Source: Candidatus Woesearchaeota archaeon UBA153 (lineage in GTDB: Archaea > Nanobdellota > Nanobdellia > Woesearchaeales > UBA525). Taken from it: a stretch of DNA of 64,000 bases. The stretch lies in contig DASH01000042.1 of assembly GCA_002503705.1 (NCBI GenBank), positions 25,950 through 89,949 on the forward strand, given 5' to 3'. The translations under genes and the position numbers were made by a program. Positions 3,221 to 57,633 of the stretch are shown in pieces (position 1 is the first letter of the stretch; each line of letters starts with the position of its first letter). Under the pieces are notes generated by a model that searched no databases, was not told the origin of the DNA, and saw only the letters and a list, made by a program, of their open reading frames with translations.

Positions 3221-3305
3221 GCTGGCGCGGCAAAAGTCATAGTTGTTCTCAGTCGTACGGACGTACTCGCGAGAACTTTAACGAGAAAAACCGGGCCGCG
3301 CCAGC
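3221..3305. repeat. 85-bp intergenic palindromic element, copy A (GCTGGCGCGGC ... GCCGCGCCAGC), preceded by CTGGACGCAGTCCAG hairpin at 3200-3214
   Basis: Perfect 11-bp terminal inverted repeats; internal AAAAGTCATAGTT and ACGTACTCG motifs shared with copies at 7738, 57546, 61648. Confidence 0.6.
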
Positions 3306-3634: not shown

Positions 3635-4438
3635 ATGGTCGGCTTCGTCTACCATTTACGGCGTTACTTCTTCCTCGCGAAGGAAGAGTGGCTCGGCGTC
3701 CTCATCACCGCGCTGTTCGCGGGCTTCGCGCTCAGCTTCCGCAACTGGGGCGGCGAGACGTTCGACCTCCTCCTCGGCTTGAAGAATTACGGCATCGAGG
3801 TCGTCGCGTTCTTCCTCCTCTTCCTCCTCCACCTCTCCGCGCAGAAGGCGGTCGGCGTCTACTACGGCATCAAAGTCGTGTATGATAAGTACTTGCTCGG
3901 CCTCATGATCGGGTTGTTCGTCACCTTCCTCAGCTTCGGCTATTGGCCGTTGTTCGTGACCGGGACTCTCGCCTTCACCGCAATCCCGAACCTGCGCGTC
4001 GGCAAGTTCCGCGCGACGCTGCCGAAGAAATGGGAGATCGCCCTCATCGCCGCCGCCGGGCCGTTGGCCTCGTTGCTCGCCATGGTGCCGTTGAACGCGT
4101 TGCACATCGGGACTGGCTTGCCGTTCTTCCACCACTTAATCGGCGTCTGCGCGCTCATCGCGATCTACTCGATGCTGCCCATTCCCGTCTTGCCGACGGC
4201 GAACCCGTACGCCGTCTACATGAGCAGGATTGAGGTGTTGGAAGGCAACCTGCCCGGGTTCGACGTCTTCTACCACTCCGCCGGCATCTACTGCTTGCTC
4301 GTCGGGTTCCTCATCGTCTTCTCCGCGATCGCGTGGTTCTTCAGCCCGAGCACGTGGGCGTTGCTCATCGCGATCATTCTCGGCTGGTGGGCGATGCACT
4401 TGTACGCGAAGACGATCGCGGAACACCGGAACTGGTAG
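3635..4438 (+). CDS. polytopic integral membrane protein, function unknown
   Basis: 267 aa with about 7 hydrophobic helices. Confidence 0.5.
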   Translation: MVGFVYHLRRYFFLAKEEWLGVLITALFAGFALSFRNWGGETFDLLLGLKNYGIEVVAFFLLFLLHLSAQKAVGVYYGIKVVYDKYLLGLMIGLFVTFLSFGYWPLFVTGTLAFTAIPNLRVGKFRATLPKKWEIALIAAAGPLASLLAMVPLNALHIGTGLPFFHHLIGVCALIAIYSMLPIPVLPTANPYAVYMSRIEVLEGNLPGFDVFYHSAGIYCLLVGFLIVFSAIAWFFSPSTWALLIAIILGWWAMHLYAKTIAEHRNW

Positions 4439-5462: not shown

Positions 5463-7673
5463 ATGCTTCGTCCGTCTGTCGAGCCGCGGTTGTACCAGGA
5501 GACGATCTTCGCCACGGCCTCTTTGAAGAACACGTTGGTCGTCTTGCCGACGGGGATGGGGAAGACGTTGATTGCCGAACTGCTCACCGTCCACCGTCTC
5601 GAACACTACACGGGCAGTAAAGTCCTCATCCTCGCGCCGACACGACCATTAGTGCAGCAGCACAAGACGACGTTCAGGAAAGACCTCGCGCTCTCGGAAG
5701 AGGAGGCGGTCATGTTCACGGGGAACGTCTCGCCGGCGAAGCGCGCCGCGTTGTGGAAGAACGCGAAGATCATCTTCAGCACGCCGCAAGGCCTGGAGAA
5801 CGACCTCGTCGGCAGCAAGATCTCGCTGAAAGACGTCTCCTTGCTCGTCTTCGACGAAGCCCACCGGGCGACTGGCGATTACAGTTACGTCTTCATCGCG
5901 GACAGATACAAGAAGGAAGCGACGCACGAGCGTATCCTCGCGCTCACCGCGAGTCCGGGGAGCGACAAGGAGAGCATCGAGCAGGTCTGCAAAGTTCTCC
6001 ACATCGAGGAGATCGAGTCGCGTTCCGCGGAAAGTTCGGACGTCAAGCCGTACATCCAGGACATCGACGTCGAGTACCTCACCGTGCCGATGCCGGCTGA
6101 GTTCAAGGGGGCGCACGCCGCGTTCCAACGCTGCCTGAAGCGAAGATTGGACGATGTCGTCGAGCTCGGCGTCGTCAATCGGCAAGCGCTGCACAACAAG
6201 ACGTTGCTGCTGAAAGCGCAAGCCGGCTTGTACGCGCGCAGCGCGAAGGGCGAGAAGAGCTACGAGGCCTTGAAGACGATGTCGCTGCTCGCGGAGGCGT
6301 TGAAGCTCCAGCATGGCATCGAACTGTTGGAGACGCAAGGCGTCGCTTCGCTCGAGAAGTACTTGGGCAAGCTGCGCGCGGAGGCGACGGCGAAGCAGAG
6401 CAAGGCGGTGCAGAACCTCGTCGCTGACGTCGACTTCAAGGCGGGCGCGGCGCTCGTCGCGTCCTTGAAGGAGGCGAACGTCGAGCACCCGAAGCTGAAG
6501 GCGTTGCAGAAGGCGGTGCTCAGAACGCTGTACGCCGACAAGAATGCCAAGATCATCATCTTCAACCAGTACCGTGACCAGGCGGTGCGCATCAAGCAAG
6601 CGTTGGATGAAATTAATGTCTCTGCGAACATCTTCGTCGGCCAATTGAAGAAAGGCGAGACCGGGATGACCCAGCTGGAGCAGCACCGCATCCTCGAATC
6701 GTTCCGCGCGGGCGAGTTCAGCTGCCTCATCGCGACGAGCGTCGCGGAAGAAGGCCTGGACATCCCGAAGGTGGACGTCGTCCTCTTCTACGAGCCGGTG
6801 CCGAGCGCCATCAGGACGGTGCAGCGTCGGGGACGCACTGGCCGTTTGGAGAAAGGCAAGATCATCATGCTCATCACGGAAGGGACGCGCGACGTCGCGC
6901 ACAAGTGGGCCGCGCACCACAAGGAGAAACGCATGTACCGGGTCTTGAGCGAGGTGAAAGGCACGCTCTCCGGCGAGGGCGAGGAAGTTGAGGCGCAGAC
7001 GACGTTAAACGAAAATAACGAGGAGAACGCCGACGTCATCATCGCCGACCATCGCGAGAAGACGAGCGGCGTCCTCAAGGAGCTCATCGACATGAACGTG
7101 AAGATCGACTTGCGGCAGTTGGACGTCGGCGACTACCGGCTGAGCGACCGCGTCGTCGTCGAGTACAAACGAGTCCCGGACTTCGTCAACAGCATCGTCG
7201 ACGGCCGGTTGCTGCAGCAGTTGCGCGGCCTGCGCAGCTACCCGCGACCGTTGATCATCATCGAGGGGGACGAGGACATCTACAGCGTGCGCAACGTGCA
7301 CCAGAACGCGATCCTCGGCATGCTCGCCGCGATCACCGTCAGCTACAACATCCCGGTCTTGTTCACAAAGACGCCGAAAGAGACTGCGTCGTTGCTCGCG
7401 CTCATCGCGCGGAAGGAGCGCGAGCGCGGGAGCGCGGAGCCGAGCGCGCACACGCAGAAGCCGCTCACCGAGACGGAGCGCCAGGAGTTCATCATTTCCA
7501 GTCTGCCCGGCGTCGGCCCGAGCCTCGCGAAAGCCTTGTTGAAGGAGTTCGGCAGCGTCAAGGGGGTCGTGGACGCGAGCCCGGAGTCGTTGCAGCGCGT
7601 CGACAAGGTCGGCGAGAAGAAAGCCAAAGCGATCCACGACGCGGTGCGCAAGAAGTACGAGCCGAACGCGTAG
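5463..7673 (+). CDS. hef: Hef: SF2 helicase fused to ERCC4/XPF nuclease and HhH2
   Basis: PTGMGKT Walker A, DEAHR box, helicase C motifs QRRGRTGR; C-terminal ERCC4 (DVGDY...IIEGDE) and HhH LPGVGPSLAKALL. Confidence 0.85.
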   Translation: MLRPSVEPRLYQETIFATASLKNTLVVLPTGMGKTLIAELLTVHRLEHYTGSKVLILAPTRPLVQQHKTTFRKDLALSEEEAVMFTGNVSPAKRAALWKNAKIIFSTPQGLENDLVGSKISLKDVSLLVFDEAHRATGDYSYVFIADRYKKEATHERILALTASPGSDKESIEQVCKVLHIEEIESRSAESSDVKPYIQDIDVEYLTVPMPAEFKGAHAAFQRCLKRRLDDVVELGVVNRQALHNKTLLLKAQAGLYARSAKGEKSYEALKTMSLLAEALKLQHGIELLETQGVASLEKYLGKLRAEATAKQSKAVQNLVADVDFKAGAALVASLKEANVEHPKLKALQKAVLRTLYADKNAKIIIFNQYRDQAVRIKQALDEINVSANIFVGQLKKGETGMTQLEQHRILESFRAGEFSCLIATSVAEEGLDIPKVDVVLFYEPVPSAIRTVQRRGRTGRLEKGKIIMLITEGTRDVAHKWAAHHKEKRMYRVLSEVKGTLSGEGEEVEAQTTLNENNEENADVIIADHREKTSGVLKELIDMNVKIDLRQLDVGDYRLSDRVVVEYKRVPDFVNSIVDGRLLQQLRGLRSYPRPLIIIEGDEDIYSVRNVHQNAILGMLAAITVSYNIPVLFTKTPKETASLLALIARKERERGSAEPSAHTQKPLTETERQEFIISSLPGVGPSLAKALLKEFGSVKGVVDASPESLQRVDKVGEKKAKAIHDAVRKKYEPNA

Positions 7674-7737
7674 GGTTGCGCGTTGATGTTTGCTCGTCGT
7701 CAGACGAACGCGAGGCCGCTGCGTCAGCGGGTACGTC

Positions 7738-7822
7738 GCTGGCGCGGCAAAAGTTGTTGTCGTCGTGCGAAAACGTCGAGTACGGAGACGCGCGAAAACG
7801 AGTACTTCCGTGCCGCGCCAGC
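7738..7822. repeat. 85-bp intergenic palindromic element, copy D
   Basis: GCTGGCGCGGCAAAAGTT ... GTGCCGCGCCAGC between hef and primase. Confidence 0.6.
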
Positions 7823-9597: not shown

Positions 9598-10155
9598 AGA
9601 CTCGCTCCGGTGTGCCGCGAGCTGCAGCACCAGAAGCAAGTCATCTTGGAGACTTCGGCTGCGGTGTTGAAAGAAAAGAAAGCCTCGGTCGCGTTCACCG
9701 TCGGCACGATGATCGAAGTGCCCCGCGCGGCGCTCACCGCCGACGAGATCGCCGCGGAGGCGGCGTTTTTCAGCTTCGGGACAAATGATTTGACGCAGAT
9801 GACGATGGGATTGTCGCGCGACGACGCCGGCAAGTTCATCCCGAGCTACCTGAAAGAAGGCCTGTTCGAGTACGACCCGTTCCAGCACCTCGACGCGACT
9901 GGCGTCGGCCAGCTCGTCACGATGGCCGTGCAGAAAGGTCGCAGCGTCAAGAAAGACCTGAAAGTCGGCATCTGCGGCGACCCGGCAAGCATCACGTTCT
10001 GCCACGCCGCCGGCCTGGACTACGTCTCGTGCAGCCCGTACCGCGTGCCGATCGCGCGCTTGGCGGCTGCGCACGCGGCAATCAACGCGAGAGTGAAGAA
10101 GTCACATTTTTTATCGTTTTTTCCGGAATCATTTTCCGATATGTCGGATGATTAA
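9598..10155 (+). pseudogene. C-terminal 185-aa remnant of pyruvate phosphate dikinase / PEP-utilising enzyme
   Basis: [10 protein letters not shown] and ICGDPAS motifs of PPDK C-terminal TIM barrel; frame opens immediately after a stop at 9595; missing the about 700-aa N-terminus; overlaps next gene by 74 bp. Confidence 0.5.
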
Positions 10156-10897
10156 GAATGAGGGCCCAACCAATCTTTCTGATTTCTTTTTCTGTTGGAA
10201 AATTCTTGTGGAATGTGAGATCTCTATTGAGTGTGCGGCCCGCGTTGTTTATGAGGTACTCTGCATAAGGTGTTTCTTGCATATACTGGAGGATATTATC
10301 CAGGAATGAGTAGTTGGGGTTGTTACTGTAGATGAGCTCTGTCGCCCTGACGAAATATTCTTCCTCCATATCGCTTTTGGCGATGACACCGAGTGCCGCC
10401 TCTTTCTTTCGAAAGAATAAGTGCCCGTATTCGTGGATGAGCCGGTCTGTCACGATGCTGTCGATGGATGTCGGAACTATCGGGCTTGAAGCGTATCGAG
10501 CGAACTCGGCTTCGTTCGTTCCCGGTGTTTGCACAGCTCTTCGAATGAGCGCGCGCATACGTTCGACTTCAGGTTGATAGACGACAATGATGTCGTGTTC
10601 TGCATAGGCGATGCCGTCGGCCTGTATGTGCCGAAACATCAATTCTAGTCTTTTGTCAGATTTTTTGATGACATATGCCGTTCCCACCACGCGCTCTCCG
10701 AAAAGCTCACACTCTTTACTCATTGGCGCATAATTTTTCGTCGTGATATCGAAGATTTGCTGAAAAGAATCGATTCTCCCATCTTGGTTCGCGGTCACAA
10801 CGACCGCTCCCCGAGGAGAACTTGTTTGCTGGGCGAAGCTCTCTCCAGTTGTTGTCAGTAAGCTTGTGATTGCGATGATGGTACAGAGGCGGTTCAT
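10082..10897 (-). CDS. secreted zinc metallopeptidase-like protein (HExxH...E), low GC
   Basis: N-terminal signal peptide [22 protein letters not shown]; HEYGH with downstream Glu; GC clearly below flanks. Confidence 0.55.
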
Positions 10898-29064: not shown

Positions 29065-30726
29065 CTACGCTTTCTTCCGCAGCACGTCGTACAGAACAGT
29101 CAGGTTCAGCTCGAACACCGCGGTCGGCATGCCGAGTTTGTTCGCGTCGAGGACTTTCGGGTCGAGCTCGCCGCAATACGCGACGTCGACGCCGGCGACG
29201 CTGACGCGCGCGACGCGGCCCGGGATGAACGAGGCGTGCTCGGTCTCCTTGTACGTCGGCGTCACGCCGAAACTGGCGAAGAGCGAGTCGAGCAGTTGCC
29301 GGATGCGCGTATAGTCCGCTTCCTCGCCAGACACTGCCGCAGCAATCCTGAACATCTCGTTCACGCCGGTTTCCGTCTTCTCTCGTGACTTCGTGAAGAC
29401 CTTGCCAATCTCGAAGATCGTCTGCGGGTACTCGTGACGCTTGTTGCGGCCGAGCGTGTCGACGAGCGAGGGCGTGAGCCACGCGCGCAACGAGTCGTAG
29501 CCCTCGCTCACGCTGCTCTTGAGCGTGATGACGTCGAGTTCGAGGTTCATGCGTTTCGTCTGCAACTCCTTGCTGATGAGATGGTAGTTCTTCACTTCGA
29601 GGAGTCCGTGCCCGACGAGGCGCTCGCGCACTTTCGCCGCGAAAATTTCGAACGGCGCTTCGCGCGCTATCGTCGCGACGTTCGGCAGGATTTCCGGGAT
29701 GTGCTCGAAGCCGTACGCGATCGCGATGTCCTCGGCGAAGTCCGCTTGGTGCAAGATATCGGTGCGGTACGCGGGAATAGAGACGACTCCTTTCTCGTAC
29801 CCGTAACCCATCTTCTCGAAGAGAGTCTTCACCGTCTTTTCGTTCAAGTCGAGGCCGAGGAGCGTGTTGATATATTTCACGTCCGCTTTCATCTTCCGCG
29901 GCTCGAGCACCGGAGAGGTTACCTTCTTGGTCGGGTACTCGAGTTCGACGCTGGAGATCTCGCCGCCCATGTCTGCGAACGCCGTGACGATCATGGCGAG
30001 GCACTCTTCCAGGATGCGCTCGTCGAAGCCGGAACACTCGATGAAGACCTCCGTCGTCTTCTCCGTGATTTTGCCCGTCAACTCGCTGTTGATGATCGGC
30101 GTGAACGACATGATGTTGCCCTTCGCGTCGAGGAAGCACGCGTAGCGAGACAATCCCGCGACGAGGCTCGCGTAGTCCTTCCCTTTCGGGTGCGCTTCCA
30201 GTATTTCTTGCGCCGTCATCGCCTTTTTCGCTTCTAACGGTTGGAACTTCACGTCGGCAGGCTTCAACCCTTTGAACGTGATGGGGAACGCGATGTGCTC
30301 CATCGGGTAGATGCCAATGGCTGCTCGTTTCCGGTTTCGGCCGAACGTGACGTGCAGTTTCTCTTGGATTTGGATGATCTCTTTCAGCTTCTCGTCGTTG
30401 ATTTTCAGCTTCGTGACGATGGCGCATCGCGTGTGCGGCCTGCACTCCTCGACGCTCTTGTCCACGATGACCTTCTTGCCGCTCTTCTTGACTTTGTACT
30501 CTTGCAGTCCGGGTTTCGCGCCGATGAAGCTGGCGAGCGCGCGGCTGAACCCTTGCTGGCTGAGCAGGTCCGGTCGGTTCGGGAAGATCTCGACGTGGAT
30601 GTCGTCATTCTCGATGCCTTCGAGCGCGGTGCCGAGCATGCCGATACGGTCTTTCAGCTGGTCGTCCGAGAGTCTCTTCCCGAGCGTCTTCAGCAGCTCT
30701 TTCTTACTGATGCTGATGGTCGGCAT
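29065..30726 (-). CDS. pheT: phenylalanine--tRNA ligase beta subunit (archaeal type)
   Basis: 553 aa; adjacent and co-directional with pheS; B3/4 and B5 domain-like regions. Confidence 0.85.
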   Translation of the reverse strand: MPTISISKKELLKTLGKRLSDDQLKDRIGMLGTALEGIENDDIHVEIFPNRPDLLSQQGFSRALASFIGAKPGLQEYKVKKSGKKVIVDKSVEECRPHTRCAIVTKLKINDEKLKEIIQIQEKLHVTFGRNRKRAAIGIYPMEHIAFPITFKGLKPADVKFQPLEAKKAMTAQEILEAHPKGKDYASLVAGLSRYACFLDAKGNIMSFTPIINSELTGKITEKTTEVFIECSGFDERILEECLAMIVTAFADMGGEISSVELEYPTKKVTSPVLEPRKMKADVKYINTLLGLDLNEKTVKTLFEKMGYGYEKGVVSIPAYRTDILHQADFAEDIAIAYGFEHIPEILPNVATIAREAPFEIFAAKVRERLVGHGLLEVKNYHLISKELQTKRMNLELDVITLKSSVSEGYDSLRAWLTPSLVDTLGRNKRHEYPQTIFEIGKVFTKSREKTETGVNEMFRIAAAVSGEEADYTRIRQLLDSLFASFGVTPTYKETEHASFIPGRVARVSVAGVDVAYCGELDPKVLDANKLGMPTAVFELNLTVLYDVLRKKA

Positions 30727-32286
30727 TTATCTCATCCACGTCTTCATGTTCTTCAACTGTTCCAAATCGTTATTGTACAACACGCGAATATCATCCAATT
30801 GGTAGTGGCGCATGATGGTGCGCTCCATGCCGATCCCCCACGCGAGCACGGGGATTTCCTTGCCGATGAGCGTCTTCGTGACTTCTGGCCTGAAGATCCC
30901 GGCGCCGCCGAGCTCGACCCAGCAGTTGCGCGCGTCGTCCCAGACGTCCACTTCCGCGCTCGGCTCAGTGTACGGGAAGTGCGCCGGTCGGATTCTCACG
31001 TCAGAGAAGCCCATCTTGCCGAAGAACGCGCGCAAGTAACCCTTCAAGTGTTGGAAGTTCGCGCTCTCATCGACGACGATGCCTTCGACTTGGTGGAGCT
31101 CGAACAAGTGCTTCCAGTCCAACGCTTCGTTCCGGTAGATCGTGCTGACGCTGAAATACTTGCCGGGCATCTTGGCCTTGCCTTGCCGGATCGCGTCGAG
31201 CGTGTGCGCGCTCAGCACGGTCGTGTGCGTGCGCAGGAGGAGTTTCGCGCTCTCTTCGTCGTTGAACGGCGCGCGCCAGCCGAGACTGCCCGTCGTGCCG
31301 CCGTGCTCGTGCGCCGCTTTGACTGCGGGAAGCACCTCTTTCGGCAGCACTCCTTTCTCGGGATTCGCTAAGTAGAACGTGTCTTGCATCTCGCGCGCGG
31401 GGTGGTCTTGCGGGACGAACAACGCGTCCAAGTCCCAAAAAGCCGTCTGGACGTGGTCGCCTTCCATCTCCTCGAACCCCATGTCGAGCCAGACCCGCTT
31501 GATGTCCGCGATCGCGTCGTTCACGAAGTGCGCCTTGCCGCCCGTCTTCTTCGGCACGTTGATCGCGACGTTGTACGGGCGGAACTTCTTCTTTCTCCAC
31601 GAGCCGTCGCTCAACATCTGTGGCGTCAATCGTTCTTCGTACGCGGTCGTCGCTTCCTTCGTCTTCGTCACGTCTTTGCCGAGCGGCGTGAGAACGTATT
31701 TCTTGTCGCGGCGCTTCAGCAAGGCCGCGTACCCTTGGCGTTTCAGCAAGTCTTGCACGCCGAGCTTCGTTCGCTCGTCGAGCTTCGCGAGGCGCAGCTT
31801 CCACTCAGTCTTTCCCGCCGCGGCCAACGCCCGCTTCGCGAGCGGCTCGTCCAAGACGAGGCCGTCCACCCACGTGAACTTCGGCTTGCCGTCTTTCGTG
31901 GTGCCGAACGGGACGTGCAACCGTTTGAGCGCGCCGATGACCGCGCCGGTCGCGTCCTTGTCGTACGCGGGGAGGATGTTCTTCAGGTCATCAACGAGGA
32001 CTTCTTTCTGGCGTTGCAAGGCCCACAACGCGTGCTCTTCCGGCAACCCGTTCAGGAAGGCTTGTTTGCCTTTCTCCGTCACCGCGAGCACGTCCTCTTC
32101 GACGCTCTCCAGCTTGACGCACGCCTTGCCTTCCAGCCATTGCAGCGCTCGCGTCGCCTCGACGTCTTGTAGTTTGGACTCGATGGCGAGGTCTGACAAC
32201 AATCCTGAGTCTTTCAGGTGCGGGAGGACTTTCCGCTCGAGCGGGTGCAAGCCCATCGCGATCTTCCGCGCTTCGTCAGACGCCAT
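30727..32286 (-). CDS. pheS: phenylalanine--tRNA ligase alpha subunit (archaeal type, N-terminal winged-helix repeats)
   Basis: Class II aaRS motifs (FRPE, GAGIFRPEV-like, GIGMER). Confidence 0.9.
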   Translation of the reverse strand: MASDEARKIAMGLHPLERKVLPHLKDSGLLSDLAIESKLQDVEATRALQWLEGKACVKLESVEEDVLAVTEKGKQAFLNGLPEEHALWALQRQKEVLVDDLKNILPAYDKDATGAVIGALKRLHVPFGTTKDGKPKFTWVDGLVLDEPLAKRALAAAGKTEWKLRLAKLDERTKLGVQDLLKRQGYAALLKRRDKKYVLTPLGKDVTKTKEATTAYEERLTPQMLSDGSWRKKKFRPYNVAINVPKKTGGKAHFVNDAIADIKRVWLDMGFEEMEGDHVQTAFWDLDALFVPQDHPAREMQDTFYLANPEKGVLPKEVLPAVKAAHEHGGTTGSLGWRAPFNDEESAKLLLRTHTTVLSAHTLDAIRQGKAKMPGKYFSVSTIYRNEALDWKHLFELHQVEGIVVDESANFQHLKGYLRAFFGKMGFSDVRIRPAHFPYTEPSAEVDVWDDARNCWVELGGAGIFRPEVTKTLIGKEIPVLAWGIGMERTIMRHYQLDDIRVLYNNDLEQLKNMKTWMR

Positions 32287-32594: not shown

Positions 32595-33401
32595 ATGATA
32601 GTCAGAGACGAATTTCTGAGCAAGCTCAGAAGGTATTTCGGACTGAACCTCTATGAGGTCAAGATCTGGACCGCGCTCCTCAGCCGGGGCGTCAGCACCG
32701 CCGGCGAGCTCAGCGACATCGCAAACGTGCCGCGCTCGCGCTCGTACGACGTTCTCGAAAGCCTCGAGAAGAAGGGCTTCATCGTGATGAAGATCGGCAA
32801 GCCGATCAAGTACATCGCCGTGCCGCCCGAAGAGGTCGTGGAACGCGTGAAGAAGAACGTCCACAACGACGCGAAGGAACGCGTCACGCGCCTGGACGAC
32901 CTGAAGAAGACGGACGTCATCAATGAGTTGCGCAACCTGCACACGCAAGGCGTCGAGCTCGTCGAGCCGACCGACCTGACGGGAGCGCTCAAGGGCAGGC
33001 ACAACCTCTACAACCACTTGGAGCTCACGATCCGTGGCGCGGAGAAGACCGTCACGATCATCACGACTTCCGGCGGCATGCTCCGCAAGGTCGAGGGCTT
33101 GAAGCCGGTCTTCGAGGAGGTCGCGAAGCGCGGCGTCAAGGTTCGCATCGCCGCTCCCCTCTCGAAAGAGACGAAAGAGGCGGAGAAGGAGCTCAAGGGC
33201 GTCGCGGAAGTGCGCGACTGCAAGACGAAGGCGCGCTTCGTCGTCGTCGACGGCAAGGAGGTCGTCTTCATGCTGATGGACGACGCGGACGTCCACCCGA
33301 CGTACGACATCGGCATCTGGATCAACACGCCCTTCTTCGCCGCCGCGCTCGAAGAGCTCTTCGAGCTCGCGTGGAAAGAGATGAAGAAGATTAAAGCGTA
33401 A
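32595..33401 (+). CDS. TrmB-family transcriptional regulator
   Basis: N-terminal wHTH LYEVKIWTALLSRGVSTAGELSDIANVPRSRSYDVLESLEKKGFI; TrmB C-terminal domain. Confidence 0.75.
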   Translation: MIVRDEFLSKLRRYFGLNLYEVKIWTALLSRGVSTAGELSDIANVPRSRSYDVLESLEKKGFIVMKIGKPIKYIAVPPEEVVERVKKNVHNDAKERVTRLDDLKKTDVINELRNLHTQGVELVEPTDLTGALKGRHNLYNHLELTIRGAEKTVTIITTSGGMLRKVEGLKPVFEEVAKRGVKVRIAAPLSKETKEAEKELKGVAEVRDCKTKARFVVVDGKEVVFMLMDDADVHPTYDIGIWINTPFFAAALEELFELAWKEMKKIKA

Positions 33402-33443: not shown

Positions 33444-34943
33444 TTATCGCTTCTCAACCCAGAATCTGATGTACGTTCCCATCGCTGAGCCGCCTTGGTG
33501 GACGGAACGGTCCTCTCGAAGGATGTGGAAACCCGTTCGTTCGAGGAGACTTCGCGCGTCCTCCGCGGTGTAGTGATGGAAGTAGAGCGTCACGCCCTCG
33601 CGCTCGGCGAGCTCTCCACCGTCGCCCTCCTTGAGCGTGAGGAATGCGATACCGCTCGATTTCAGGACGCGTTGCCACTCTTGTAAAGCCCGTTCCGCTT
33701 CCGTCGGTCGCGAGTGGACGAGGACTGCGCACGCCCAGAGCCCATCGAACTCATTCTCGGGGAACGGCAAAGAATCTATGGTCGCGATAACAATCCTTCC
33801 GTCGGGAACTCTCCGCTTCGCCTCGACGACGAATTTCTTCTCCCGGTCGACGCCGGCGACATCGTATCCTCGCTTCGCGAAACTGGCGAGGTCGCGGCCG
33901 TTCCCGCAACCGACGTCGAGAATCTTGCCTCGAGGAACGTAATGGCGGAAATAGTCTATTTCCGCTTCCATCGTGTACGTGTCGTACTTCTTGATGAGTC
34001 GTTCCGCGTTGCGGGAATAAAACTTCTCGACGATCTCAGACGGTTTTTTCAGAACGACGTAAAACTCCTCATCACCGATGGCGAACTTCTCGAACGCCCA
34101 AGCTTTTCGTCTCACGAGCTTCTCGAACCACGCGCGGCGCTCGTGCTTGATCGTCTTGCCGCCGCCGAGGCTCTTCGTCGGGAACGAGACGACGAGCCAC
34201 TTCGCGGGGATGGAATCGAGGACTTTCCCGCTGATGTTCCGTTTCGCCTCCTCGAGCGTGTCGAGGAGCTTGAAGAGGAAGGCGACGTCCGCGAGGTCCT
34301 TGTTCGAGATGACGGGCAACGTGTCGTGGTGCTTCACCAAGTCGAGCGGGAAGACCTCGCCATCGATGCCTTCAATCTGGAAGAATCGTTTCACGTCGTC
34401 GAGCTGCGTGCTCGGCAAATCGGAAGCGAGATAGAGTGGTTTGCATCCCAGGAATGCGTAGCTGTACGGGTTCGCGCCGCACCCGAGATCGAGAACGACG
34501 CGAGGAACGCCCGTTATACTAAATATCTTCGCGTAGATTTCCTTGTAATATGAAATTCGTTCTTTCGAGCTCTGGTGGAGTAGGAGGAGCTTTTTGATGA
34601 GTTCCGCGTCATGCGGTCTCTTCTCGAGCTCGTCAAGGAGTTTTCCGCGCCCTTTCTTCTCGTCCAGGTCGAAGACGCCGTAGACGCTCCGCAACTCGGC
34701 GCGGACGAGCTTCTTGAGCTCTTCAAATTCCGAACTCCGCGAGAACTCCTTGAACGACTTAGAGTTTTTTACTTTTTCTTTTAACTTCTTGTTCTGTTGC
34801 AGAATTTTTTCTATTTTTTCCTGGACGAACTTGTCGTCGAGCGTCGACAGTTCTCGTTTCGCTTTAATCCCCGCGACGATGTTTGGGATCATGTGTACAC
34901 CATTGCAACCATCATGGCCGCGAAGCGATTGGACGCCCGCCAC
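33444..34943 (-). CDS. two-domain methyltransferase: N-terminal FmrO/RmtB/ArmA-family 16S rRNA (guanine1405-N7) methyltransferase-like domain fused to C-terminal class I SAM methyltransferase
   Basis: VLDLGCGANPYS and VVSFPTKSLGGG motifs as in aminoglycoside-resistance 16S MTases; second domain ILDVGCGNGRDLASFAKRGYDVAGVD; N-terminal half lower GC. Confidence 0.6.
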   Translation of the reverse strand: MAGVQSLRGHDGCNGVHMIPNIVAGIKAKRELSTLDDKFVQEKIEKILQQNKKLKEKVKNSKSFKEFSRSSEFEELKKLVRAELRSVYGVFDLDEKKGRGKLLDELEKRPHDAELIKKLLLLHQSSKERISYYKEIYAKIFSITGVPRVVLDLGCGANPYSYAFLGCKPLYLASDLPSTQLDDVKRFFQIEGIDGEVFPLDLVKHHDTLPVISNKDLADVAFLFKLLDTLEEAKRNISGKVLDSIPAKWLVVSFPTKSLGGGKTIKHERRAWFEKLVRRKAWAFEKFAIGDEEFYVVLKKPSEIVEKFYSRNAERLIKKYDTYTMEAEIDYFRHYVPRGKILDVGCGNGRDLASFAKRGYDVAGVDREKKFVVEAKRRVPDGRIVIATIDSLPFPENEFDGLWACAVLVHSRPTEAERALQEWQRVLKSSGIAFLTLKEGDGGELAEREGVTLYFHHYTAEDARSLLERTGFHILREDRSVHQGGSAMGTYIRFWVEKR

Positions 34944-35064
34944 CGGCGGGTTCTCGCTGGCGCGGCACGGATTTCCTCGTCCGTGTGCGTCGCGTTCTCG
35001 TGCGACTTCGCACTTTGACTATGACTCTTTGCCGCGCCAGCACGGGACTGCGCTACGCGCGCAG

Positions 35065-36108
35065 CTACCATCGTTTCACGGCGACGACGCCGCCGAAGTG
35101 CTCAATCTTGGACGCCGCTTCGCTCGCGGAGAGCACGTGGACTTCGCCACGGACGCTCTCGCACTGGCGCAGCAGCGCTTCGAGCTTCGCGGACGCTTCC
35201 GGACTCTCGGTTCGCGACCGGCCGATGGCCGCCTCCGTGACGAGCAGGAACGCCACGTTCGCGCTCGCGATGGCTTCGCTGATGTCGAGCGGCCCGTACG
35301 CGAGCAACCCTTTTGACAACGCCGCCACCGCTTGTTCGACGAGGCTCATCTCGCGCAGCGTGGAGTTCTCCTTGATGACGCGCTCGACCTCCGGACGGTT
35401 CAACAGTTCGCGGATCGCGGTCTTCTCGACCGCGCTGATCGACGTCAGGATGGTCTTCTTCTTCAACGCGGGCGGCAACTCCTTGTCCACGTACTCTTTC
35501 CAGAACGCGGGCGCGCCCGCGATGATGCTCGTGAACTTGATGCGCTCGTCCCGCGCGGAGATCTCGGTGACGATCTCCTTGAAGAACGCGGCGCTCTTCT
35601 TCTCATCCACTGCCTTCTTCGGCACGTCGCCTTTCAAGCGGGCGACCTCTTCGATGCCGCGTTTCGTGACCGTGTAGAGTTTCGCCTCCTCGCGGTCGAA
35701 CAACACGACGAGGATGGCTGGCTCGTTCTTCGTGGACTCTTCAAGCTTCGCGATGAGATACGACGGCCACGACGCCTTCCGCAACGTCACTTCCTCGCCA
35801 GGCTCGAGACCGAACGAGTGGTGCTCGCCGCGCGGGATGTCTTCAGGACCGTCGATGATAGTGCCGAGGACTCGTAACGACGAGCCGTCCGGCGCGTACT
35901 CAGTCTTCTCCACCTTGATGGCGAGCCGGATTCTGCGTTTCGAAACTGATCCTTTCTCATCTGTCTTGCCGACCTTCACCTTCCGCTCGGTGCTCCCTTC
36001 CAGCTCGTCGCCCGGCGCGATGATGGAGCGCAAGGTCCAGACGTCGTCCGCAGTCTCCACTCTCAGACGCACTTCGCCGTCCCGCCAATCCTTCTTGAAT
36101 AAACGCAT
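35065..36108 (-). CDS. pelA: Pelota/Dom34 (mRNA surveillance)
   Basis: MRLFKKDWRDGEVRLRVETADDVW start typical of aPelota; eRF1-like domains. Confidence 0.85.
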   Translation of the reverse strand: MRLFKKDWRDGEVRLRVETADDVWTLRSIIAPGDELEGSTERKVKVGKTDEKGSVSKRRIRLAIKVEKTEYAPDGSSLRVLGTIIDGPEDIPRGEHHSFGLEPGEEVTLRKASWPSYLIAKLEESTKNEPAILVVLFDREEAKLYTVTKRGIEEVARLKGDVPKKAVDEKKSAAFFKEIVTEISARDERIKFTSIIAGAPAFWKEYVDKELPPALKKKTILTSISAVEKTAIRELLNRPEVERVIKENSTLREMSLVEQAVAALSKGLLAYGPLDISEAIASANVAFLLVTEAAIGRSRTESPEASAKLEALLRQCESVRGEVHVLSASEAASKIEHFGGVVAVKRW

Positions 36109-36390: not shown

Positions 36391-36402
36391 TTTATATATA
36401 AA
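36391..36402 (+). promoter_or_regulatory. TATA box (TTTATATATAAA) for surface-protein gene cluster
   Basis: About 20 nt upstream of ATG 36422. Confidence 0.5.
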
Positions 36403-36421
36403 TCTTTGTGGGGTGAGAGGT

Positions 36422-37621
36422 ATGCGGCGTCGTGGTCAAGAGTTCCGGATGAGTTCTCCGCTCGTCGTCCTCCTCATCGCCGTCGTCATCATCCTCTACA
36501 TCCTCTTCCTCCCTCCCGCGGAGCGGGAAGCGCTCCTGACCGGCACGACCACGCCTGGCGGCGGTTCTTCAGGGGGCGGCGTTCTGACTCCTGGCGGCGC
36601 CGGCGTCGTCGTCATGGATAAGTACCTCGGCACGCTCTTGCCGCAGTCGAGCGGCAGCGTCGAGCACGCCATCCCGACGACCACAGTCTTCACGAGCACG
36701 AACACGGAAGAGGTCAAGTTCGTCGACAGCATGGGCGTCTCGCGCAGCGCGTTCTCGCGCCAAGACGCCACGCTCACGTTCAACGTCGAACTCGGCGTGG
36801 CGAAGAACCACTTGTTGACGTTCAACGTGGACGAGTACGGCGGCCCCCTCACCATCTCGCTGAACGACCAACCAATCTTCAGCAGGGAGATCACGACGCG
36901 TTCGCCCGCGCCAATCACGCTCCCGCAAGAACTCCTCAAACCGCAGAACACGCTCACGTTCACCGCCGGCACGCCCGGCTGGGCGTTCTGGAAGTCGAAC
37001 ACGTACTCGTTGCGCAACGTCCTCGTCAGCGCAGACGTGACGCGGTACGACAACGCCGCGGCGGAACAACACTTCACGATCACGCCCGCCGAGCACGAGA
37101 AGCTCGAGACCGCGAAGCTCGAGTTCGTCCCCGAGTGCGACGCGAAGAAGACGGGACGGCTCAGCATCACGCTGAACGGCAACCTCCTCTACGCGGGCTA
37201 TATGGACTGCGGCATCCTCACCCGGCAAGAGGTCGCGAAAGAGTCCCTCGTCATCGGCGACAACCGCATCGGGTTCACGAGTGGCTCGGGCGGCTACACC
37301 ATCGACCGGATCAAGCTCGTCTCGACGCTCAAAGAGCAAGACTACCCCGTCTTGTACTTCAACCTGCCGCCCGACCTGTTCCAGCAGGCGAACGTCTTCG
37401 CCGGCCGCGTCGTCCTCACGCTCCGCTTCAGCGAAGGAAACACGCTCAAGACGGGCAGCATCGTCGTGAACGGCTTCCAAGACAGCTTCCAGACGGACAG
37501 CTACTACTACCAAGCGACCCTCGACCCGAACATCCTCGTCCCGAACGCGAACTCGATCCAAGTCATCCCGGTCGGCGGCGCGCTGCACATCCCCGAAGTC
37601 CGCATCGAGATGCTCGGGTGA
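36422..37621 (+). CDS. membrane-anchored secreted protein (N-terminal TM/signal, Gly/Thr linker, about 330-aa ectodomain)
   Basis: In-frame ATG after TATA; hydrophobic LVVLLIAVVIILYILFL; the 36406-36621 track ORF is out of frame. Confidence 0.6.
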   Translation: MRRRGQEFRMSSPLVVLLIAVVIILYILFLPPAEREALLTGTTTPGGGSSGGGVLTPGGAGVVVMDKYLGTLLPQSSGSVEHAIPTTTVFTSTNTEEVKFVDSMGVSRSAFSRQDATLTFNVELGVAKNHLLTFNVDEYGGPLTISLNDQPIFSREITTRSPAPITLPQELLKPQNTLTFTAGTPGWAFWKSNTYSLRNVLVSADVTRYDNAAAEQHFTITPAEHEKLETAKLEFVPECDAKKTGRLSITLNGNLLYAGYMDCGILTRQEVAKESLVIGDNRIGFTSGSGGYTIDRIKLVSTLKEQDYPVLYFNLPPDLFQQANVFAGRVVLTLRFSEGNTLKTGSIVVNGFQDSFQTDSYYYQATLDPNILVPNANSIQVIPVGGALHIPEVRIEMLG

Positions 37622-45375: not shown

Positions 45376-45444
45376 GCGAGCGCTTCGGTATCCGGGCCGG
45401 CGTTCGCTGACGCGGCAGCCAGAATCTTTCGAGCCAAGACGAAT

Positions 45445-55688: not shown

Positions 55689-56771
55689 TCATACGGTAAC
55701 GGTCGTCTCCGTTCGGGTTTTTCCACCACTTTGCAAATACTGTTGAATGAGTTGTAGGAATTCTTTGGAATCCGCAAAGTAATTCAGGTACGCTTTTCTC
55801 AGTTCTTCCACCGATTTCGCGCCGACGAGCACAACATCCTTGTTCGGATTACGGTTCTGCAATCTTTCAGCTTCTACGTAGTGTTCTGTGGCAATCGGTT
55901 CCTGTTCGAGCGGGTAACCTCGAATGCTGAGTTTTTCATTCCCTTCCGTCACATCGAGCTCGAGGAGGAAGAACTGGAGCTCTTTGATTTTCGGCTCTAT
56001 CGCTTTCAGAGCATCCGACCAGCCCGTCATCTTTGAGATTATCTTCAGATGACTCACTTTCTCCTTGACTCTTTCGTAAAGTTCGACGTCATCGGTCGGC
56101 GTATCGGGAACTGGTGGTTGCCCTTCCATTCTCGCGAATACCGAACTAATTAACTTGAAGAAATCTTTCCATTCTTGCTCTCCTTCGTTGGACTTGATGG
56201 CCTGGTCAGTGAATAAGTCGACGATTTCGATGGAGGTGGCCCACGCGTGCTGTATCTTCGACCTTATTTGCAACTCGACCTGTAGGCCATCGTAGGTTGT
56301 GATTTTGTCGCTTTTGTATTTGTACACTAAATGTATGCCGCGATACCCGTCATTTTTCGGTTCTTTGATATAGTCTTTTTCTCGTACGCGTTTGTGTTTG
56401 AGACCTCTGCTTTTCTTATAGACGTTGCTCAGAGCATACGCTTTTGCTACGTCCTGCATGACTGCCCTGCATCCCGCGATATCTTGCATCTGCGACAGGC
56501 TCATGGATTTTGTCTGCGTCCTCTGTAGCTTTTTCAGTATGGATGGCACTCTCTTGAGTCGTTGGACGACGAGTGCAGAACTATCGATTTTTTTTGATTC
56601 TCTTCTGAGTCTGACTTGAAAGGTATTCATGGGATAGCTATGGGACGACCGCCAATTACTGAGAATGTTCAGCGCGTTATCCGTCTGTTCTTCGGTAGAT
56701 TGCGGATCAGTTAAAATGTGCCCCGCTTTATCTACTTGTGATCTCCCGTACTCGGGTTTTGTCCAGGTCAT
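55689..56771 (-). CDS. RelA/SpoT nucleotidyltransferase-domain protein (small alarmone synthetase / toxSAS-like) with about 170-aa C-terminal domain of unknown function; low GC
   Basis: DIAGCRAV, YRGIHLV and ELQIRSKIQHAWA synthetase motifs; GC about 45% vs about 62% flanks. Confidence 0.65.
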   Translation of the reverse strand: MTWTKPEYGRSQVDKAGHILTDPQSTEEQTDNALNILSNWRSSHSYPMNTFQVRLRRESKKIDSSALVVQRLKRVPSILKKLQRTQTKSMSLSQMQDIAGCRAVMQDVAKAYALSNVYKKSRGLKHKRVREKDYIKEPKNDGYRGIHLVYKYKSDKITTYDGLQVELQIRSKIQHAWATSIEIVDLFTDQAIKSNEGEQEWKDFFKLISSVFARMEGQPPVPDTPTDDVELYERVKEKVSHLKIISKMTGWSDALKAIEPKIKELQFFLLELDVTEGNEKLSIRGYPLEQEPIATEHYVEAERLQNRNPNKDVVLVGAKSVEELRKAYLNYFADSKEFLQLIQQYLQSGGKTRTETTVTV

Positions 56772-57545: not shown

Positions 57546-57633
57546 GCTGGCGCGGCCAAAGTTATAGTTTTCGTTCTTCAGTGCACGAACGTACTCGCAT
57601 GCACTTGTACGAGGAGATCCGTGCCGCGTCAGC
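57546..57633. repeat. 88-bp intergenic palindromic element, copy B
   Basis: GCTGGCGCGGCCAAAGTTATAGTT ... GTGCCGCGTCAGC starting 2 nt after stop codon. Confidence 0.55.

Follow-up and report, generated by a model that had tools for sequence, protein, structure and literature searches.

In a 64,000-nucleotide stretch of DNA from Candidatus Woesearchaeota archaeon UBA153 (contig DASH01000042.1, positions 25,950 to 89,949), hereafter the window, we analyzed a minus-strand gene whose product joins a domain of the FmrO rRNA methyltransferase family to a second methyltransferase. We consider it probable that this protein, one of a DPANN archaeal clade, modifies small-subunit rRNA as an intrinsic guanine-N7 methyltransferase, acting probably at the equivalent of G1405 and carrying an accessory methyltransferase fused to its C terminus. 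The reading of the gene as a vertically inherited housekeeping gene draws on a clade of relatives that extends across DPANN, on conserved synteny, on a context of translation genes, and on the third-position GC content (GC3) of the FmrO domain, which is native in relatives.

A DPANN clade of the FmrO family

The protein matches the Pfam FmrO profile (PF07091) with 99 bits against a gathering threshold of 27 (E = 3.8e-28, profile positions 30-252 of 255), a similarity that goes far beyond the generic GxGxG motif, and all 10 fused homologues likewise match this profile. Every family hallmark quoted in the original prediction, which had been made from the DNA letters alone, was found, including FLFKLLDTLEE at residues 205-215, SFPTKSLGGG at residues 236-245, and AWFE at residues 254-257. 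Among solved structures, the top matches by sequence are RmtC, Sgm, RmtB, RmtF, and ArmA, and the bacterial Rmt/ArmA sequences share 14 invariant alignment columns with the archaeal clade. An AlphaFold model built with 64 homologues as input, with a predicted local distance difference test score (pLDDT) of 95.4 and a predicted template modeling score (pTM) of 0.90, has the helical N-terminal and Rossmann catalytic architecture of Sgm, RmtB, and RmtC. It gives a Foldseek TM score of 0.84 to Sgm, and the overall fold, N-terminal domain included, superposes on Sgm at 2.4 Å across 250 residues. The domain is best viewed as a member of the FmrO/Arm family in the evolutionary sense, not as a certified resistance enzyme.

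Relatives of this protein are numerous in archaea. About 50 single-domain relatives (275 to 315 amino acids) and about 10 fused ones were returned by a word-indexed search, a HMMER scan of a library clustered at 50% identity gave 189 matches at E ≤ 1e-30, and a scan in which each GTDB species was represented by one genome yielded at least 579 confirmed relatives. In the best 80 of these at least 579, the record title reads Woesearchaeota, Nanoarchaeota, Nanoarchaeia, Nanobdellati (the DPANN kingdom), or simply "archaeon," the exceptions being many "uncultured Methanosarcinales" records and one "Methanobacteriota." These exceptional labels look unreliable, as the loci that bear them as titles of metagenome-assembled genomes (L010, L014, L015, L019, L020, other TPA [third-party annotation] loci, and L009) have the Pelota-FmrO-TrmB-PheRS order found in DPANN, several of the records with a 70 to 80% identical TrmB-like gene and the loci just named with one that is 75 to 80% identical. 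The archaeal host supposed at the outset is borne out, and the FmrO domain appears, from these comparisons, to belong to a DPANN-archaeal (Woesearchaeota/Nanoarchaeota) clade of the FmrO/Arm family.

The genomic neighborhood is dominated by genes of translation, as follows (coordinates are those of the window; PheRS is phenylalanyl-tRNA synthetase).

35065-36108, minus strand: Pelota, a ribosome-rescue factor (Pfam eRF1_1, eRF1_2, and eRF1_3), the same-strand upstream neighbor
34956-35041, no strand assigned: 86-nt hairpin repeat with 12-nt perfect arms, in the 172-nt spacer between Pelota and the fusion gene
32595-33401, plus strand: TrmB/TrmBL2-like DNA-binding protein, the downstream neighbor (NCBIfam TrmBL2, 76.7 bits, below the cut-off)
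29065-32286, minus strand: PheRS beta (29065-30726) and PheRS alpha (30727-32286), assigned by Pfam and synteny

The order Pelota, FmrO, TrmB-like gene, PheRS recurs in about 20 to 25 of 80 genome loci, at FmrO identities down to 33%. Pelota lies upstream of FmrO in 21 of 78 related loci, and in relatives a single nucleotide lies between the Pelota stop and the FmrO start, according to independent Joint Genome Institute (JGI) gene calls. In 10 other loci, L039, L040, and L048 among them, FmrO is found directly 3' of a two-KH-domain gene of the KRR1/PNO1 (Dim2) type, which RIO kinase and aIF1A genes in turn precede; this cluster is a small-subunit maturation and initiation neighborhood. No mobile element or antibiotic-producer cluster is present at the window locus, the flanks of which are Pelota, the TrmB-like gene, and PheRS alpha and beta. 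The context fits an inherited ribosome-associated gene, not a resistance island.

These features suggest a model in which the basic helical N-terminal domain would dock on the assembled 30S subunit, and a guanine at the top of helix 44, most probably the G1405 equivalent, would be flipped out and then methylated at N7 from S-adenosylmethionine (SAM). Such a modification, made by FmrO residues 1-283, would be constitutive and vertically inherited, and insensitivity to 4,6-disubstituted deoxystreptamine aminoglycosides would be a by-product rather than the selected function. The accessory methyltransferase may have entered the slot between the FmrO and TrmB-like genes, become fused in frame in one sub-clade, and since then been lost or replaced repeatedly, even among strains.

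Conserved residues and the probable target

The ORF (open reading frame) list of the window gives an uninterrupted minus-strand frame at 33444-34943, with 499 codons counted from GTG. Translation most likely begins at the ATG at 34892 rather than at the GTG at 34943, because the N termini of homologues align at this ATG, the public gene call starts there (P0001, 482 amino acids of the same sequence), and a GGTG lies 6 nt 5' of it. An exact look-up of the 499-residue product of the GTG start gave no match, which pointed to the ATG as well. Residue numbers are counted from this ATG throughout, and the gene is laid out as follows.

33444-34892, minus strand: whole FmrO-methyltransferase fusion gene, 482 codons from the ATG at 34892, with a TAA stop at 33444-33446
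34893-34943, minus strand: 17-codon 5' extension to the GTG, with residues found in no homologue; probably untranslated
34563-34892, minus strand: basic helical N-terminal domain, residues 1-110, defined by alignment and model (isoelectric point [pI] 9.7)
34671-34691, minus strand: segment R68-S-V-Y-G-V-F74, aligned without gaps to the RmtC region
34557-34577, minus strand: HQSSKER motif, residues 106-112, with H, S, E, and R invariant in both alignments
34044-34562, minus strand: FmrO catalytic Rossmann-fold domain, residues 111-283, with Pfam FmrO and NCBIfam Rmt-generic matches
34458-34499, minus strand: SAM-binding motif I of the FmrO domain, VVLDLGCGANPYSY, residues 132-145
34269-34271, minus strand: codon of Lys208, the equivalent of RmtC catalytic Lys204
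33447-34043, minus strand: C-terminal class I SAM-dependent methyltransferase domain, residues 284-482, accessory and variable
33885-33923, minus strand: SAM-binding motif I of the C-terminal domain, ILDVGCGNGRDLA, residues 324-336

Alignment columns were interpreted by means of the RmtC-30S cryo-electron microscopy paper (PMC10288597) and the Sgm paper (PMC2896518). The window protein keeps the HxSxxER motif, the DLGCGxNP motif, and the ribose-binding Asp. HQSSKER matches the Sgm cofactor-binding residues His102, Ser104, Thr105, and Arg108 (PMC2896518), and D135, C138, N141, and P142 of FmrO motif I are invariant. H106, S108, R112, D135, D158, and D184, all found here and fully or almost fully invariant in the clade, cover Sgm His102, Ser104, Arg108, Asp156, and Asp182 as well as RmtC Ser107 and Asp160. 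In RmtC, the universally conserved, catalytic Lys204 touches N7 of the flipped G1405, and Tyr60 provides aromatic stacking between SAM and G1405 (PMC10288597); the window protein keeps the lysine as K208 and an aromatic residue as F74. RmtC Arg50, which binds helix 45, is R64 here and is invariant in the clade. The N-terminal residues 1-110, all-helical in the AlphaFold model at a pLDDT above 90 and spanned by the Sgm and RmtB fold matches, correspond to the N1/N2 30S-docking domain of the Rmt/Sgm enzymes.

Several observations weigh against an intrinsic methyltransferase acting at the G1405 equivalent. RmtC His54, an essential and near-universal residue of the N1 subdomain (PMC10288597), is replaced by Arg68, with Arg in all but one aligned archaeal sequence, and the local alignment is ungapped (VRxxLHxxxGxY versus VRAELRSVYGVF). 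RmtC Lys20 and Tyr21 have become Glu and Leu, the "pincer" residues are not kept (Arg211 of RmtC is Glu and Arg241 is Gly), and the N1 subdomain carries a helix-forming insertion of about 20 residues that is particular to the archaeal clade. As the docking and pincer residues differ from those of RmtC and the N1 insertion is added, a different target nucleotide or RNA is possible. The NCBIfam Rmt equivalog (NF000466, Rmt-generic) scores 130.8 bits, below its cut-off of 250, and the GC3 of the whole gene, 0.728, is 2.1 standard deviations (sd) under the window gene mean of 0.841 (sd 0.053, other genes). Here the inserted hairpin repeat separates the gene from Pelota, leaving operon coupling unsupported, and a conserved housekeeping context is compatible with selection by aminoglycoside producers in the community. 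Lastly, our literature search returned no biochemistry on any archaeal member of the family and no archaeal rRNA N7-methylguanosine (m7G) at this position.

One explanation for the altered docking surface is that the FmrO-like domain has been retargeted, to another rRNA nucleotide, to another RNA such as tRNA, or to the immature pre-30S particle, and does not act on G1405 of the mature 30S subunit. We regard this as rather unlikely. The insertion, the replacement of Lys20/Tyr21 and His54, and the variable residues of the pincer loop speak for a changed target, pre-30S maturation neighbors (RIO kinase and the KH/Dim2-like gene) are present in some genomes, and the orthodox function of NEQ545, a family member from Nanoarchaeum equitans, was left open by Husain et al. 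(PMC2896518). Set against this, the contacts to the flipped guanine and to SAM are kept (K208, F74, and the NP motif), the helix-45-binding arginine is invariant in the clade, and the superposition on Sgm takes in the N-terminal domain. The surface formed by helices 44 and 45 is, in addition, highly conserved between bacteria and archaea.

The original prediction described an aminoglycoside-resistance-type enzyme, acquired horizontally from bacteria, with rRNA modification or defense against antibiotic-producing community members as possible roles. In the strict form of that idea, the gene would be a dedicated m7G1405 resistance determinant obtained from bacteria and kept against antibiotic-producing neighbors, which we find improbable. 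Family membership with the catalytic Lys and the aromatic residue kept is consistent with resistance, and the sole experimentally characterized members of the family are resistance enzymes; Husain et al. (2010) put NEQ545 closer to the pathogen than to the producer group (PMC2896518), the gene has the low GC3 given above, and the slot next to FmrO in sister strains holds a GNAT gene with weak, sub-threshold AAC(6') similarity. However, identity to RmtB, RmtC, RmtE, RmtF, and ArmA, for which authentic reference sequences from plasmid records were used, is only 23 to 29%, the general Rmt model stays under its cut-off, and the named Rmt subfamilies of NCBIfam score 38 to 67 bits against cut-offs of 500 to 550. 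The histidine essential to RmtC is replaced, relatives occur in at least 579 species genomes, the synteny with Pelota and PheRS is kept across deep divergence, and neither mobile elements nor producer clusters are found in the context. A further argument, by analogy only, comes from a 2026 preprint in which distant grm-like and npmA-like genes of candidate phyla radiation (CPR) bacteria left the minimum inhibitory concentration (MIC) of Escherichia coli unchanged, so that family membership alone is no predictor of resistance. "Aminoglycoside-resistance-type" therefore does not hold as stated, given a score below the Rmt cut-off, the loss of His54, and a housekeeping context of translation genes. 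As to the suggested roles, intrinsic rRNA modification would fit the data better and dedicated defense less well.

The claim of horizontal acquisition had been built on an N-terminal half said to be AT-richer than the host average. This is true of the total GC of the first approximately 110 codons (0.49) but not of GC3, in which the FmrO domain (0.742) and the C-terminal domain (0.709) are alike and similarly mildly low. The low N-terminal GC stems from second codon positions (GC2 0.236) and a lysine-rich composition (19% Lys). An N-terminal dip that reflects amino acid composition, in a gene belonging to a syntenic clade found throughout DPANN, does not sustain a bacterial origin. In relatives, the FmrO domain has a GC3 of 0.564 (L087) or 0.576 (L089) against a neighbor range of 0.56 to 0.64, whereas the fused domain stands at 0.345 in L089 against a host value of about 0.58 and at 0.459 in L008 against about 0.70. 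With the C-terminal domain AT-shifted in relatives and the FmrO GC3 native, the compositional signal points at the C-terminal domain.

The second methyltransferase and its variable slot

Residues 324-417 match both Methyltransf_11 and Methyltransf_25 at E values of about 1e-21, above threshold and with the GxGxG motif I and the acidic end of strand 2 in place, as the original prediction of a Methyltransf_11-like domain would have it. G328, G332, D334, and the ribose-binding D349 are invariant across the 10 fused proteins, which are 38 to 51% identical overall and have a common junction (...FYVVLKDP / xxxY...), and the AlphaFold model keeps a pLDDT of 94 to 97 across it. Ten divergent proteins with one junction and kept SAM-binding residues, along with a confident model through the junction, indicate that the fusion is genuine; it was probably formed once. 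It is also unusual, as had been proposed, with 3 fused proteins (P0001, P0002, and P0017) among the top 150 of 189 representatives at 50% identity clustering and 1 fused locus among 80 genome loci. A neighbor-joining tree of the FmrO domain, computed without support values and used only for coarse placement, puts the fused proteins in one sub-clade, intermixed with unfused ones. Mean pairwise identity among the fused proteins is 0.55 for the FmrO domain versus 0.36 for the C-terminal domain, which is the faster evolving of the two. The distance matrices of the two domains agree only in part (Mantel r = 0.59); P0004 and P0008 are 71% identical in the FmrO domain versus 34% in the C-terminal domain.

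That the fusion is an artefact, either a misassembly or a frameshift merging two genes, or else a decaying pseudogene, we hold to be very improbable. The closeness of an unfused protein (P0016) and a fused one (P0067), which fall in one 90% cluster, might raise the suspicion, as might the odd composition of the C-terminal domain in relatives. Yet the two genes differ by a clean replacement of about 0.8 to 1 kb with no frameshift, the 1,449 nt of the fusion gene contain no internal stop or frameshift, and an identical product is encoded on an independent Logan assembly contig. The shared junction, the intact motif I and ribose-binding Asp, and the confidence of the model (pTM 0.90) add to this. 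Given the shared junction and the clean replacement, an origin of the fusion by misassembly or frameshift was rejected.

The nature of the C-terminal domain as an accessory element is best seen in two strains, L087 and L089. Their flanks are 99.7 to 99.9% identical, and they diverge from about FmrO codon 276 to the TrmB-like gene, which forms the far boundary of the variable interval, so that the breakpoint lies within the 3' end of FmrO. L087 has a 295-residue FmrO protein followed by NUDIX and GNAT genes (6828-7799), while L089 has a fusion of 481 residues (3643-4397 for the slot), and a third locus, L090, has an unrelated 140-residue ORF at the same place. The cargo is AT-rich, with a GC3 of 0.25 for the GNAT gene and 0.35 for the methyltransferase domain versus about 0.58 for the neighbors. 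The swap between strains and the ORF of L090 mark the FmrO-TrmB interval as a variable slot and the second methyltransferase as accessory. We also considered the GNAT gene of the alternative cassette as a sign of a resistance island and rejected it, as its matches to AAC(6'), RimI, and others are far below their cut-offs.

What substrate the C-terminal domain would act on is hardly narrowed by its relatives. Its matches to described families (DVU_1556, TehB, CpaM, and BioC) are all sub-threshold, its structural neighbors are mostly uncharacterized or small-molecule methyltransferases, and its pI varies between 6.2 and 9.6 among the fused proteins and does not discriminate between an RNA and a small-molecule substrate. 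Used as the sole query, the domain retrieved only 7 distant stand-alone relatives, at no more than 41% identity over partial lengths; the only near-full-length one is 36% identical. The gene contexts of the two best, one of which is bacterial, are uninformative. Uncharacterized small class I methyltransferases that stand alone and come close are RPA2492 (3e23), Q8PUK2_METMA (3sm3), the Bacillus thuringiensis structure 3l8d, and NCBIfam DVU_1556, and scores against families of uncharacterized methyltransferases are below the cut-offs (74 versus 155 bits). As these relatives have no assigned substrate and the scores are sub-cut-off, no function is transferable to the C-terminal domain, and any activity that it may have is left to inference.

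Known systems, significance, and other features of the window

The window protein has in common with the Arm/Rmt/FmrO family (Sgm, RmtB, RmtC, RmtF, and ArmA; PF07091) a basic helical N-terminal domain, a Rossmann domain, the motifs, the lysine, and the aromatic residue. It departs from them in its low identity, in the His54 and Lys20/Tyr21 replacements, in the N1 insertion, and in the second methyltransferase. Whereas Arm/Rmt genes reside on plasmids, on transposons, and in producer clusters, the archaeal clade has a chromosomal housekeeping context. The closest precedent is NEQ545, which Husain et al. (2010, PMC2896518) called the "first archaeal ortholog" in the Arm family. Compared by its published description only, it is likewise from DPANN, strongly diverged, and divergent in its N-terminal domain with the catalytic motifs kept; it was reported as a single-domain protein without one N-terminal helix, whereas the window protein is enlarged by an N-terminal insertion and by the fused methyltransferase.

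A natural fusion of two rRNA methyltransferases is also found in E. coli, where RlmKL (YcbY) makes m7G2069 and m2G2445 at neighboring sites of 23S rRNA. The likeness to the window protein is one of analogy only, each polypeptide combining an m7G-type rRNA methyltransferase with a second class I SAM methyltransferase; specific homology between the two could not be detected, and the second domain of the window protein is dispensable between strains. Archaeal members of the Arm family have been known since 2010, but the fused architecture and its exchange at the level of strains appear undescribed in the literature searched, in which queries on archaeal FmrO, NEQ545, Woesearchaeota and aminoglycosides, and archaeal m7G1405 returned only the 2010 Sgm paper.

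Nearly all that is known of the Arm/Rmt family concerns pan-aminoglycoside resistance, and the native function and origin of the family are unclear. A large, syntenic DPANN clade offers a testable case for m7G in helix 44 as an intrinsic modification of the ribosome, and the size and housekeeping context of this clade make it, to our minds, a more valuable lead than the fusion. There is a practical side as well, as automated pipelines already label such genes "16S rRNA (guanine(1405)-N(7))-methyltransferase," and they would enter resistome surveys as resistance genes. The exchange of the fused domain with NUDIX and GNAT genes at one breakpoint, in turn, describes a variable slot that makes and breaks a domain fusion. 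A much stronger proposition, to which we give little credence, is that the ribosomes of Woesearchaeota and Nanoarchaeota at large constitutively carry m7G at the G1405 equivalent and that the tethered second enzyme of the fused sub-clade methylates the small subunit too. If it were true, a mark known from the clinic as "resistance" would be an ancient housekeeping modification of a whole archaeal lineage, and the fusion would be a small-subunit counterpart of RlmKL.

Other features of the locus were noted along the way. The TrmB/TrmBL2-like protein is 70 to 90% identical across DPANN loci, while PheRS alpha is only 36 to 60% and FmrO 33 to 55% identical; conservation of the TrmB-like protein is thus unusually strong, as expected of an abundant chromatin-type protein like TrmBL2. 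Upstream of Pelota and divergent from it lies a gene for a conserved protein of about 400 residues (window positions approximately 36400-37621, plus strand) that has an N-terminal membrane anchor and no Pfam domain; 19 related loci have a homologue of it at position -2 or -3.

The hairpin repeat in the spacer between Pelota and the fusion gene is one of a family of intergenic hairpins of about 86 nt, found in the window at 3221-3305, 7738-7822, 34956-35041, and 57546-57633, with half copies near 45406 and 61800. Members have perfect 12-nt terminal inverted arms, GCTGGCGCGGCA ... TGCCGCGCCAGC, with 62 to 63 nt between them, and arm matches number 10 against 0.96 expected by chance. RNA folding of the Pelota-fusion spacer gives a z value of -3.5, and Rfam and tRNA scans of the window detected no RNA genes. 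The family could represent a repeat of the miniature inverted-repeat transposable element (MITE) or repetitive extragenic palindromic (REP) kind, or a terminator-like element. Two low-GC ORFs on the minus strand, at 10082-10897 and 55689-56771, have a GC of 0.47 and a GC3 of about 0.54 against a window average GC3 of 0.84 and are candidates for recently acquired genes.

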